From a virus, in the IMG/VR virus record IMGVR_UViG_3300024581_002845: a DNA stretch of 64,000 bases; one strand, given 5' to 3'. Both the position numbers and the translations under genes were made by a program. The notes beneath the pieces were generated by a model. The model had not been told where the DNA came from, ran no database searches, and worked only from the letters and a program-made list of their open reading frames with translations. Every line of letters begins with the position of its first letter. Positions within the stretch are counted from its first letter, which is position 1. Of this stretch, positions 4,287 to 58,639 are shown one piece after another.

Positions 4287-4491
4287 ATTCTCGTTTTGGT
4301 CTATTTGTCCCACCAATAGTCTTGGCTTTGCTTAATTCATAAAACTCATTTAGGTACCATTCAAGTCTTTGGGACCATGATGCGGTATCTAATTCGTAAA
4401 CAAAATTGTTTATTCCTTCTAATGAATCCGCAATTCTTTCGAGAGCTTCTACACCCCTCTTATTTAAATTCTCTTTATCAGATGTCGCCAT
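4252..4491 (-). CDS. Hypothetical protein, 79 aa
   Basis: Fills the gap in the operon and overlaps both neighbours. Confidence 0.6.
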   Translation of the reverse strand: MATSDKENLNKRGVEALERIADSLEGINNFVYELDTASWSQRLEWYLNEFYELSKAKTIGGTNRPKREYEEESGDNSTV

Positions 4492-5203
4492 ATTTTAGTC
4501 TTTTATTTAATATTAAATTATTTTTGATGGTCTCGAATACCTTCTCTTCGGGACTATCCAATTCCACTTTCCATTCAGAATCTTCTATGTGATTTTCTAT
4601 TTCAGAAAGTCTATGGTCAATAACCTCCACCTTCTTATATAAGTCGTCATTTTCCGCACTTATGGTAGAAGTGTTTTTATGTATGTCTTCGATATCGGAT
4701 TCTAAAGACTTAATCTCAAAATATTCCCCATCGACAATACCATTTCGTTCGGTTTCCAATTTTTTAATTTGGTCGTATTCCTCCTGTACTTTCCTTTGTA
4801 GTTCCTCCTCTATGGATTTTATATTTTCATAATGTTTTTCAATGGAAGAATTTAAGGTGTCCTCAGTTTCTTTTATAGTGTCGTAATGTTCCCTTACCTG
4901 ATCCCACTTTTCATTTACAATATTCGGTGACTCTTCTAACCTCTTGACGTTCTTATTAATTTCATCGAATAAGACCTTTTTTTCTTCTTGTAATTTCAAT
5001 TTTACGGACTTACTCTCGTCCGTTTTAAAAACAAAATCGTAGATGTTAGATTCATTAAGATTAGATTCGAGATACAATAAAAAGAGTGACACCACAACAG
5101 ACCAATCATCAGATTCATATCTGATATTTTCTAAGGTGTCCGCAAACCCCTCCAATTTATTAACTACGGGTTCCGTAAACTCTATGTAACTATCTTGTAC
5201 CAT
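4478..5203 (-). CDS. Coiled-coil hypothetical protein
   Basis: E/K-rich heptad character; operonic position. Confidence 0.65.
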   Translation of the reverse strand: MVQDSYIEFTEPVVNKLEGFADTLENIRYESDDWSVVVSLFLLYLESNLNESNIYDFVFKTDESKSVKLKLQEEKKVLFDEINKNVKRLEESPNIVNEKWDQVREHYDTIKETEDTLNSSIEKHYENIKSIEEELQRKVQEEYDQIKKLETERNGIVDGEYFEIKSLESDIEDIHKNTSTISAENDDLYKKVEVIDHRLSEIENHIEDSEWKVELDSPEEKVFETIKNNLILNKRLKYGDI

Positions 5204-37909: not shown

Positions 37910-38413
37910 TTAATCTATTCTTCTTTGTGATATTACATCATTCATCGCATCCGCAAATACATCCTCAAACTTTAATAGTTTTTCAATGGACTCTAAAGAC
38001 TCATAAGAGACCTTTAACATCGCAGTGTTCAGATAAACACCTTTATTTTTACCCGCAATAATAACAAAGTCAATCTCCACGTCAGGTAAATTACCGTCTA
38101 ACCTAACCTGATTAGGTTGTATGGTGATGCCAGGACGAAGATCTCCCAAATCAGATACCTGAGTACCAAAATTAGAAATTACGTCACTCACGGACTTCTT
38201 TTGTTGGTCGTTCAACTGTAAATCCTCTTCAGTAGATGCGATCATAGTGACTACAACCCCATCAACAACAGTTGATACGTTTTCCATCTTCTTTTCGGAG
38301 TTATCTTCCTGTTCGTTAAGGGATTTTTTGTTTAGTTGAGATTCATTAAGGTTTCTTAATGTATTCAACATCCTTTTTGTCTTGTCGTAGTCCATATGTG
38401 TTTCAAATTTCAT
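37910..38413 (-). CDS. Hypothetical protein, 167 aa
   Basis: ORF track. Confidence 0.65.
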   Translation of the reverse strand: MKFETHMDYDKTKRMLNTLRNLNESQLNKKSLNEQEDNSEKKMENVSTVVDGVVVTMIASTEEDLQLNDQQKKSVSDVISNFGTQVSDLGDLRPGITIQPNQVRLDGNLPDVEIDFVIIAGKNKGVYLNTAMLKVSYESLESIEKLLKFEDVFADAMNDVISQRRID

Positions 38414-39008
38414 CTTCTATAAAATTTTTAAAATTAAACGAAGGGTTTATATCTGTATAAATATTTGAAAAGTTGGATTTACATACAATTCCCTTAAAAT
38501 TCTCTACGTTTTCTATGAATCCGTTACTTGGGACAACCCTTTCTTCGATATTATACCTCTCACAGAGGTATCTACAAAGTTCTACTGTGGTTTCCTGTTG
38601 TTGATCGGTATATCTGTCCCAATAAAACCTATCTCTCCAACTCCTAACATAAGGTTCAGACCTATGTGGGTCATTGATCCAATTACTGAAGTACCCCGTG
38701 ATGGTATTTTTTTGTAACCATCCTAAGTTTTCTATTGCAATTTTGATCTGTTTACGATCAACTTTATCATTACCGAAGGTTTTTGAGGAAAATTCAGGAT
38801 CAAGGACTTTATAAACATCCCCCATTTTACTTATAATGAAATGAGGAATATCATCGTATTCCCCATTGTATCTGTACTTAATTTTATTTACGAAATCGTC
38901 AATCCTTCTCTTAGTATCATATAAAAAGATCTGTTTCTTTTTATATTTTCTTTTAGAGTGGTTAAGTGTTTTACTATCTATTGTTTCTACGTCTCGAATT
39001 TCCAACAT
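38403..39008 (-). CDS. N-acetylmuramoyl-L-alanine amidase (Amidase_2)-like protein with apparently missing Zn-His ligands
   Basis: IPHFIISKMGDV, IAIENLG, YTDQQQETTVELCRYLCERYNI, TDINP. Confidence 0.65.
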   Translation of the reverse strand: MLEIRDVETIDSKTLNHSKRKYKKKQIFLYDTKRRIDDFVNKIKYRYNGEYDDIPHFIISKMGDVYKVLDPEFSSKTFGNDKVDRKQIKIAIENLGWLQKNTITGYFSNWINDPHRSEPYVRSWRDRFYWDRYTDQQQETTVELCRYLCERYNIEERVVPSNGFIENVENFKGIVCKSNFSNIYTDINPSFNFKNFIEDEI

Positions 39009-39255
39009 TCCTTACAATTACTTTAGATCCTACTTGAATGAAGTTATTTTGGGGTGGTGGTGATTTTTCCATATATAAATCATCCACGTATTCAGTAGGT
39101 AATGGTGTTGGGAGGGGTGTTTCTGTAGGTGAGGGGGTAGAAGTTGGTATAGGGGTTACGGTTGGGCTTGGTGTTGATGTTGGGTCGGGTGTGTTAGAAG
39201 GAGTTAAAGTTAATGTCGGAGTTGGGGTTCCTGAAGGTGTTACCTCTATTAATTT
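38974..39255 (-). CDS. -1 frame extension (93 aa, Pro/Thr-rich) of the 39249-40523 protein
   Basis: After the A10 run the frame reads KLIEVTPSGTPTPTLTLTPSNTPDPT...RRRNNR* with no start codon before the PT tract. Confidence 0.7.
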   Translation of the reverse strand, partial: KLIEVTPSGTPTPTLTLTPSNTPDPTSTPSPTVTPIPTSTPSPTETPLPTPLPTEYVDDLYMEKSPPPQNNFIQVGSKVIVRNVGNSRRRNNR

Positions 39256-40523
39256 TTTTTTTCAGGGTCTTCTTGATCCTGAATGGGTTCTCTAACAATA
39301 AAGTTTGGTTTAGGTTGTTCTGTTGGTTCGGGTGTGGTTATTTTACCTGTTTGGATATCCAACTGTGCGGTTTCAACACTATCGGGTAATTGAACGTCCT
39401 CTTCTTGTTCTGTTTGATCCCAAGATCTTGTTTGTACTAAGTATTCCTCCAATTGTTCGTATCGATTTGCAGGTCTATTTGTTGCCGTTGGTTCGGGTGT
39501 CTCCGTTTTTACTTCAACATCAAACTCAATATTTGTGGATTCGGGTAACTCATCCAACACGACATCAATCTTTTTGATTTCTTCAGTTGTTTCTATAACC
39601 TCTTCTTGTGGTAAGTCTTCAACCATATCATTAAGGACCTGATCCAATGCATGATCCTCATCCCATTCTTCATTCTCTAAACCGTCTTCTAACGTTGAAT
39701 CCCAATCTCTGTAATCCTCCTCTGTTGGTTCAGGGATCTCATCCATCCAACTTGGTGGTTCCACTCCTCTTGCCTCATCAGGTAATGGTTCGTTGTAAAG
39801 ACCAAGATCCTCATCATTTCGAATCATCTCCTTTAGGAGTTCTCTTTGTTCCTCCTTAGTGATTCTTTCCTTTGGTTCTTTTTTGGTTTCATCATGAGGG
39901 TACTTCTTAAGTAACTCTTCAATCCTATCCAACTCTTCTTGTGTTGGCCTGAAACGAGAAACCTCCGCAACCAAATCAGATGCGTCTATCTTGTCTTCCT
40001 GTTTAGTTTCGTCACCTAATTCGGAATTTTCCCGATTAACCTCTTCTTTTTTAGCATTATTCTCTTCTTGGAACTTAACTAACATATGTAAGAATGAAAG
40101 TGAGATTAGTGGTAACATTCCACCCGCAAAAATTGCAAGGAATCGTCTATGTGATTGTAAGTCTCCCTGTTCAATACCTGAATATTCTAAAATGGGTCCA
40201 ACTAATTCAACCCATGAAAGAAATTGTTCGCTATCTATTTTGATATATTCAAACGCAAAAAATATGTTACCCACAAACTGAATTAAGGTAACAATTCCAA
40301 AGGGTACATATACTTTAGACCCCATTTGTGCGGATATCGCAGCTAACGCCGACAATGCCGCAATCTCAATACCTATTGAAAGGTATACCGCCCATGATAA
40401 TGGATTAGAAATACCATACCACTGAGTTACGTGTGATATCGATACAATTGCAACAGTAATGATTGGTACAAGAAACGCAAAATATATTATTGCCTTAAAA
40501 TTCTTACTAAACCACTTACCCAT
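39249..40523 (-). CDS. Multi-pass membrane protein (about 4 TM) with long acidic cytoplasmic tail
   Basis: Hydrophobic N-terminal ~150 aa; D/E-rich C-term ending EKKN on an A10 run. Confidence 0.8.
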   Translation of the reverse strand: MGKWFSKNFKAIIYFAFLVPIITVAIVSISHVTQWYGISNPLSWAVYLSIGIEIAALSALAAISAQMGSKVYVPFGIVTLIQFVGNIFFAFEYIKIDSEQFLSWVELVGPILEYSGIEQGDLQSHRRFLAIFAGGMLPLISLSFLHMLVKFQEENNAKKEEVNRENSELGDETKQEDKIDASDLVAEVSRFRPTQEELDRIEELLKKYPHDETKKEPKERITKEEQRELLKEMIRNDEDLGLYNEPLPDEARGVEPPSWMDEIPEPTEEDYRDWDSTLEDGLENEEWDEDHALDQVLNDMVEDLPQEEVIETTEEIKKIDVVLDELPESTNIEFDVEVKTETPEPTATNRPANRYEQLEEYLVQTRSWDQTEQEEDVQLPDSVETAQLDIQTGKITTPEPTEQPKPNFIVREPIQDQEDPEKKN

Positions 40524-40526
40524 TTA

Positions 40527-40814
40527 TTATTTGAGTTGTCCTTCCAACACTTCCAACTCCTTTTCAATCTCTGTTTGTCTATCTAAATCGAACATCTTTC
40601 TATCCGTGGCTTGGATCATTCTGTGTTCACTCTTAAGACCTTCTATTTTAAGTCTGAGATTAAGTTCTTCCTTGTTGAATGTGTTTTCTTTTATGTCCTG
40701 TATCTCTTTTTTAATTGCAGTGAGTTCTCTACTATCACCACATCCTCTAAAGAAGGTCAGTATTAGGACTACAAAGACCACTATTGTAAAATATTTGTCT
40801 AAAAACTTCTTCAT
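40527..40814 (-). CDS. Membrane-anchored coiled-coil protein, possible lipoprotein/spanin-like
   Basis: N-terminal TM then FRGC lipobox-like site; TATTTATA at 40834-40841. Confidence 0.6.
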   Translation of the reverse strand: MKKFLDKYFTIVVFVVLILTFFRGCGDSRELTAIKKEIQDIKENTFNKEELNLRLKIEGLKSEHRMIQATDRKMFDLDRQTEIEKELEVLEGQLK

Positions 40815-58585: not shown

Positions 58586-58639
58586 GTTCTTTTTTTTTAT
58601 ATACTTTATAAATATCGTAGAATTACAAAATGTCCTGAT

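Follow-up and report, generated by a model that had tools for sequence, protein, structure and literature searches.

A hairpin-preceded poly-A frame junction as a probable site of transcriptional recoding in a membrane-protein gene of large uncultured phages

Slippage of RNA polymerase on homopolymeric runs is a mechanism class that is already known. The RNA:DNA hybrid within RNA polymerase measures 9-10 base pairs (bp), and runs of nine A or T residues slip efficiently in vivo (PMC5009743). In Citrobacter rodentium tssM1 (A11, out of frame) and Yersinia pseudotuberculosis tssM3 (A9, in frame), the polymerase adds A residues, yielding a short and a full-length variant, two length variants for each gene, with recoding of about 15-25% (Gueguen et al. 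2014, PMC4256274). RNA structure can take part as well: in IS1447, an IS3-family element of Clostridium thermocellum, an A9 run directly 3' of an mRNA stem-loop slips at about 16% in each direction (PMC6211511), and in a Roseiflexus IS630 element a nascent stem-loop adjacent to the motif on its 5' side enables slippage (Penno et al. 2015, as described in PMC5009743). Here we describe a site on the minus strand of a 64,000-nucleotide (nt) stretch of viral DNA, IMG/VR record IMGVR_UViG_3300024581_002845 (hereafter the window), at which the gene for a membrane protein of 424 amino acids (aa) ends at a run of ten A residues. We conclude, with a probability of about 0.68, that this is a programmed recoding site acting mainly at transcription, by which some of the protein would receive a C-terminal extension encoded in the -1 frame.

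How does the phage gene compare with these systems? Like tssM1 and tssM3 it has a poly-A run in a membrane-protein gene with a stop codon soon after, and in both groups some relatives are out of frame and others in frame (PMC4256274 for the tssM genes). Unlike the phage site, which is known from sequence alone, tssM encodes a component of the bacterial type VI secretion system with a known C-terminal function; the cited account of the tssM genes mentions no hairpin directly 5' of the run, whereas the phage family usually has one. The phage run shares with IS1447 its position directly behind a stem-loop, and IS1447-like elements and the phage family alike have similar stem-loops of differing sequence (PMC6211511). 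In IS1447, however, a one-base deletion fuses transposase ORFA to ORFB, whereas the phage gene needs an insertion or a -1 reading. Roseiflexus IS630 offers a terminator-like nascent hairpin that is 5'-adjacent to the motif, as in the phage gene, and that has been suggested to open the hybrid at its upstream end; its motif is heteropolymeric (T5C5), slips in one direction by a one-base deletion and follows a G+C-rich stem of 6 bp (PMC5009743), whereas the phage family has homopolymeric runs of A9-11 behind weaker, A+T-rich stems of 4-10 bp. In Shigella spa13/spa32 slippage places a C-terminal extension on 25-30% of the product, and the end of that extension reaches into the start of the following gene, as at the phage site (PMC5009743). 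There, unlike in the phage, type III secretion is concerned, and how slippage affects the neighbour has been measured; for the phage Amidase_2 gene such an effect is suggested by the overlap. Lambda G/GT is likewise a conserved phage recoding event with a fixed ratio of short and C-terminally extended protein (PMC5009743), yet it is ribosomal, uses a short heptamer and belongs to the tail assembly genes, with neither long homopolymer nor 5' hairpin. Set against the features of each class, the phage sites have those of homopolymer slippage, a run of about nine or more at a frame junction and a selected alternative frame reached only through that run, and that of stem-loop slippage, a hairpin directly 5' of the motif (23 of 28 sequence clusters). 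From the features of ribosomal -1 frameshifting they have the heptamer in phase and lack both a conserved 3' structure and a conserved 5' element like a Shine-Dalgarno (SD) sequence.

The junction in the window reads GAC CCT GAA AAA AAA AAT TAA TAG on the minus strand, and its parts are as follows.

39249-40523, minus strand: frame-0 open reading frame (ORF), the putative short isoform; 424 aa, C-terminal DPEKKN, then TAA.
39253-39262, minus strand: A10 run (T10 on the plus strand), the candidate slippage run; read in the sequence, in relatives and in independent contigs.
39246-39251, minus strand: frame-0 double stop TAA TAG, read in the sequence.
38974-39261, minus strand: extension in the -1 frame; 95 sense codons, then TAG at 38974-38976.
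39263-39281, minus strand: 19-nt hairpin CAGG.AT-loop-GA.CCTG, the 3' arm ending at the base that precedes the A-run.
39091-39240, minus strand: Pro/Thr-rich (PT) linker of the extension, 62% P+T, clade-specific.
39067-39084, minus strand: DDLYME, a case of the conserved motif (D/E)xLY(W/M/L)E, outside the amidase overlap.
38977-39012, minus strand: conserved basic C-terminus RNVGNSRRRNNR, pattern RNVGNxxRRRxxR.

This layout had been read correctly in the original prediction: frame 0 stops right after the A10 run, and the -1 frame is closed by a TGA (39262-39264) directly 5' of it. Behind that TGA the -1 frame begins KKKLIEVTPSG and ends in RNVGNSRRRNNR; it is open for 95 sense codons (93 in the prediction) and stops at 38974 as foreseen. 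The earliest ATG, GTG or TTG in this frame is the GTG of YVDD, 3' of the PT tract, and thus no start codon precedes the tract. The extension also fills, as predicted, the 240 nt that separate the frame-0 stop from the amidase ATG (39008), and overlaps the Amidase_2 ORF, which shares frame 0, by 35 nt. A10 is the longest homopolymer of the window; since about 1.3 T runs of at least 10 are expected at the window's composition, the run alone is within chance, and what is beyond chance is its placement at the frame junction together with its conservation. The second-longest homopolymer, a minus-strand A9 at 58590-58598, is intergenic: two minus-strand ORFs flank it, and the one of 685 aa begins 5 nt further downstream with its ATG (58585). 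This A9 is part of an A-rich leader and marks no frame junction.

Could the run be an A11 that was misassembled? Public sequencing data from four runs were aligned, as assembled contigs, to window positions 38700-39800. An independent estuary DNA contig, which spans 38980-39800 gap-free, has A10, and two contigs from two metatranscriptome libraries bridge A10 without a gap. RNA libraries may contain DNA, and these contig readings establish the genomic state of the run. Being gap-free and independent, the contigs show that this state is A10 and not A11, and the suspicion of a homopolymer assembly error within one continuous gene is not borne out.

The same junction recurs in relatives. Metagenomic homologs of the 424-aa protein number thousands, on contigs of up to about 335 kb; cluster counts given here refer to the 120 best protein clusters, with at least 44% identity. 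Junctions were read in 80 IMG/VR loci, out of 205 IMG/VR relatives, and these loci hold 42 distinct out-of-frame junctions in proteins with 43-65% aa identity to that of the window; grouped at 75% identity, they form 28 sequence clusters. In 113 of the 120 best clusters the protein ends at the same site with KK plus 0-4 residues, and four clusters are longer, in frame, with the C-terminus RNVGN(S/T)xRRRxxR. The 42 out-of-frame runs comprise two A9, 32 A10 and eight A11, never fewer than nine. All 42 sites have the frame-0 stop 0-12 nt 3' of the run (0-4 nt in most) and a -1 frame that is closed 0-36 nt 5' of the run and open 3' of it, for 53-154 codons in most of them; the +1 frame is open for just 5-42 codons. 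Shorter -1 extensions occur at four sites, three of 36-37 codons and one cut by the contig end. Every one of the 42 requires the identical -1 shift, equivalent to one added A, and this includes the A11 lineages, which derive from a T-to-A substitution and still require one more A or a -1 shift. The poly-A and stop layout that had been predicted to persist in homologs is therefore kept, and homologs that read in frame without an A-run are not the rule. Three related loci with A11 (L061, L076, L079) have the extensions of 36-37 codons, which end ...IYWE.DDKK and lack RNVGN...RRR, as though the frame had changed a second time or the lineage had been truncated.

Some relatives encode the whole protein in frame with the same C-terminus (P0052, P0105, P0107, P0108, L013, L043, L047, L052). 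L082 and L083 are in frame through an extra C after an intact A10. L081, an ENA contig corresponding to P0052, is identically flanked but has an A11 at 4328-4338, behind a strong 5' hairpin of -10.5 kcal/mol. On this single contig all 551 aa of the protein are thereby read in one frame, and the A11 may be either a true run-length variant or the consensus of a mixed population. In L043, L047 and L052 (gene start 4001) each gene has two A9-A10 runs, each coding E-(E/D)-K-K-(N/K), and the poly-A/KKN element thus appears to be repeated and kept even where no frameshift is needed. L001 carries at 4592-4628 an in-frame A9 after GAGGAAG, at about codon 205 of the same gene and absent from the window; slippage on this A9 would cut the protein short early.

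Is the -1 extension a selected protein sequence? Among 36 aligned extensions the linkers are variable, PT-rich in the window's clade and acidic in others, and what is conserved amid them is the LY(W/M)E motif together with a basic C-terminus. Identity between lineages in the -1 frame is 22-66%. In 21 distinct versions of the motif, Leu is encoded by six synonymous codons that span both of its codon families, and Tyr and Glu by two codons each; the C-terminal Arg codons alternate among relatives between AGA/AGG and CGT/CGC/CGA. Such synonymous switches at Leu and Arg are expected only under selection at the amino-acid level; judged by its codons, the extension is under protein-level selection. 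The amidase ATG (39006-39008) falls within the N-V codons of RNVGN. Since in-frame relatives carry the same C-terminus, anchor and tail belong to one polypeptide. With one extra A the predicted long isoform continues for 92 residues past position 424, which is then K, to a total of 516 aa, the predicted junction peptide being ...DPEKKKLIEVTPSG..., and its final 20 residues include six basic and zero acidic ones. The kept run, the stop codon and the selected -1 frame thus support the central proposal of the original prediction, that recoding at A10 would add a C-terminal tail and give two isoforms. Its description of the tail as PT-rich and mucin-like is correct in composition for the window's clade and does not extend to the clades with acidic linkers; the word can describe composition only, because the positive-inside rule makes a cytoplasmic location of the tail probable.

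The abutting 5' hairpin across clusters is new in this analysis. We took unconstrained ViennaRNA energies of 32-nt windows that end at the run and compared them with about 14,000 control windows drawn from these genes outside their membrane part; this comparison of minimum free energies (MFE) was used in place of a count of contiguous stems, which under-detects interrupted ones. Mean MFE is -6.1 kcal/mol at the run versus -1.95 kcal/mol in the controls, and 23 of 28 clusters have a hairpin of -4 kcal/mol or lower that stops at most 3 nt short of the run, versus 7.7% of control windows. The stems vary by lineage (CAGG/CCTG, CATCATC/GATGATG, CTTCC/GGAAG, CTTCGTCA/TGACGAAG, CTTTATCTG/CAGATGAAG), and that of L014 has 10 bp. 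Compensatory changes are seen at three of seven pairs in a same-geometry subset that we selected ourselves and that is thus biased. The hairpin is missing in five of the seven in-frame relatives, though A10 is kept; the exceptions, L081 with its A11 and L082 with A10 and an added C, are both close to out-of-frame types. A covariance-model search over whole loci returned many off-site A-rich matches, and that alignment was therefore left out of the covariation analysis; two better-scoring off-site matches are in-frame A6/A9 stretches and not recoding sites. In the 60 nt downstream of the run no conserved structure was found across sites (mean z -0.85, no consistent fold), and in the window this segment has an MFE of -5.3 and a z of -1.0. 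The 3' hairpin GAGGT-AAC-ACCTT that had been proposed as a stimulator does exist; it is weak and is not conserved in relatives. No conserved SD-like element was found upstream of the runs among relatives, GAGG being confined to some clades.

We favour slippage of RNA polymerase over ribosomal -1 frameshifting. The conserved structure lies 5' of the run and not 3' of it, which argues for the polymerase rather than the ribosome, and a run whose length always corresponds to the RNA:DNA hybrid of 9-10 bp fits slippage of the polymerase; it is at least nine in all 42 sites, though a heptamer would suffice for a ribosome. Guided by the sigma factor that the phage itself encodes, the host's RNA polymerase would transcribe the short hairpin and then A10. 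With a hybrid of 9-10 bp that is all rA:dT and a nascent hairpin at its upstream edge, the transcript would slip on the template, and some mRNAs would then carry A11. Standard translation of the A10 mRNA would give the 424-aa short isoform, a membrane anchor with an acidic tail, and the A11 mRNA would give the 516-aa long isoform with its flexible linker, LY(W/M)E motif and basic RNVGNxxRRRxxR end. On the A11 mRNA ribosomes would read past the start codon of Amidase_2 and terminate 35 nt into the amidase gene, and slippage may therefore also affect translation of the amidase; the conserved 35-nt overlap suggests such an effect on Amidase_2 expression. That the polymerase and not the ribosome slips, like any ratio between the isoforms, is something we infer. 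A further speculation, which we regard as rather improbable, is that hairpin and A10 act as a terminator-like error generator that fixes the isoform ratio and gates the amidase, as a slippage-based timer of lysis or envelope functions in large Bacteroidota phages.

Several points weigh against slippage by the polymerase. The hairpin in the window is weak (-4.6 kcal/mol, within the top 21% of windows in its own gene), and five of the 28 clusters have no clear abutting hairpin. The sites share descent, so that p-values overstate their independence. In Roseiflexus IS630 the hairpin favours a deletion, whereas the phage site requires an insertion, and the literature cited here does not document how Bacteroidota RNA polymerase behaves on slippery runs. 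Assembled contigs drop rare variants, and a minority of A11 RNA is therefore invisible in them. Finally, A_AAA_AAA is in frame in every run of at least nine, and ribosomal -1 shifting may contribute.

Could the ribosome, then, account for most of the recoding? Programmed -1 frameshifting on A_AAA_AAA or A_AAA_AAT as the main route, with tRNA-Lys slipping back by one base, would be aided by a nearby frame-0 stop codon, and such a stop is found within 0-4 nt of the run at most sites. An X_XXY_YYZ heptamer is in phase at every site, a criterion that such long runs satisfy trivially, and phage -1 shifts without strong stimulators are known, lambda G/GT among them (PMC5009743). The conservation pattern, however, is not the one that this route predicts: there is no conserved structure on the 3' side (the mean z and the unconserved 3' hairpin speak alike), the run is never shorter than nine in 42 distinct sites where seven would do, and the structure that is conserved is 5' and abuts the run. 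Structure in that position attenuates -1 ribosomal shifting and does not stimulate it. Bacteroidota mRNAs, moreover, largely do without SD sequences, which makes an upstream stimulator of the SD type unlikely, and GAGG precedes the runs in some clades only. On balance we consider the ribosome an unlikely main route, though one to be taken seriously.

A different event at the same run would be phase variation of the DNA, in which replication slippage would flip the gene from a short-only to a long state and back. Homopolymers of ten are mutable, and L081/P0052 is indeed in frame through A11 with an otherwise identical layout and a strong hairpin. Nevertheless, 113 of 120 clusters from many independent assemblies share the out-of-frame state, the close relatives P0002-P0008 (92-100% identity) all have identical protein ends, and the independent DNA contig again has A10; the A11 lineages, for their part, go back to a T-to-A substitution and continue to need +1, and L082 and L083 reached the frame through an added C with A10 intact. 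The shared state of nearly all assemblies and the fixation by an extra C make phase variation at the homopolymer, which the original prediction had also entertained, highly improbable. It could also be that no recoding takes place, the extension being either the decaying remnant of a past frameshift or a small gene expressed by a non-canonical start or reinitiation. In keeping with this, gene callers report the short ORF alone, and the fusion protein has been read from DNA rather than seen. We regard this as the least probable explanation, scarcely compatible with amino-acid selection in the -1 frame across lineages that are only 22-66% identical in it; furthermore, in the window no start codon lies ahead of the conserved parts, the conservation of hairpin and A-run falls exactly at the junction, and in-frame relatives share the C-terminus. 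Slippage of RNA polymerase at the hairpin-preceded run is thus the explanation we retain.

What kind of protein is recoded? Its N-terminal domain of about 150 aa has four predicted membrane helices and is 60-90% identical across 37 relatives; it is followed by an acidic tail of 274 aa with 85 D/E versus 31 K/R. An AlphaFold2 model of the N-terminal domain has four to five helices (predicted local distance difference test score, pLDDT, 77); neither AFDB clusters nor the PDB yielded a significant match to its fold. The protein has no match in Pfam, PHROGs, NCBIfam or PADLOC, and an Atlas search returned unnamed viral clusters only. With three Lys at the N-terminus and four hydrophobic helices, the positive-inside rule would probably place the C-terminal tail in the cytoplasm. 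Some homologs give an above-threshold Pfam match to the C-terminal part of the TacA1/DUF1778 antitoxin, as in P0109 at residues 173-216 (PF08681, 24.1 bits, E 3.7e-5); this helical segment (SRFRP..EL..LE..L) follows just after the membrane domain and corresponds to about aa 178-210 of the window protein. At aa 272-303 the window protein has a 32-aa acidic Trp/Asp-rich motif (DWD.TL.DGL...WDEDH) that is 69% identical to L084:4001-4096, the hypothetical protein immuto35A_85 of Flavobacterium phage immuto_3-5A. That protein is otherwise unrelated and comes from cultured Baltic Flavobacterium phages, and the motif may be a shared short interaction motif. Searches of 2.2 kb of DNA against INPHARED phages gave no match, tblastn of the membrane protein gave only a distant 29% match plus the 32-aa motif in immuto, and tblastn of the sigma factor gave matches of at most 34% identity; the window thus has no cultured relative.

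The gene lies in a conserved order (ClpP, one ORF, DUF6576, sigma-70, a 95-aa ORF, the membrane-protein gene, Amidase_2), and its two immediate neighbours are these.

40527-40814, minus strand: upstream 95-aa ORF with an N-terminal hydrophobic segment and Cys, then a coiled coil; a conserved neighbour.
38403-39008, minus strand: Amidase_2-family gene, 201 aa (Pfam E 1.2e-8).

The stop of the 95-aa ORF ends 1 nt before the membrane-protein ATG, the two ends also abut in relatives, and synteny holds in L081-L083; the ORF has sub-threshold NCBIfam matches to small lipoprotein families. The Amidase_2 match (E 1.2e-8) spans profile positions 37-112 of 131 and a PDB sequence search of the amidase found nothing meaningful; the product could be a divergent amidase or a non-catalytic cell-wall-binding protein. 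Its 35-nt overlap with the extension is also present in L081-L083. From the gene order, beside a small lipoprotein-like ORF and an amidase, one may weakly guess at a role in an envelope or lysis module. Holin-like features are the predicted transmembrane helices, the conserved Amidase_2 neighbour and the basic C-terminus of the long form. The protein was not filed as a holin: at 424/516 aa it exceeds the usual size of less than about 220 aa, and it has no PHROG or Pfam holin match. A ClpX-type basic C-terminal degron (a phage ClpP gene is nearby), a holin/antiholin pair and an anti-sigma factor were also considered and are not claimed.

With the mechanism class and the hairpin-plus-A-run layout already known, the latter from IS1447, what is new here is the gene family and its breadth, and that the recoded state is the rule in a widespread lineage of uncultured large phages. 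The lineage carries a Bacteroidota-type sigma factor and occurs in marine, estuarine and freshwater metagenomes. To our knowledge recoding has been little studied in Bacteroidota phages, and our literature searches found no description of recoding in this membrane-protein family. An annotation rule may be offered from these sites: a run of A9-11, a nearby stop codon and a conserved -1 ORF that lacks a start codon. Because gene callers report the truncated protein, the conserved C-terminal module is missing from protein databases. About 28 diverged natural hairpin-plus-poly-A signals, together with in-frame relatives that mostly lack the hairpin, form a comparative series well suited to the question of how nascent RNA structure tunes the slippage of RNA polymerase.

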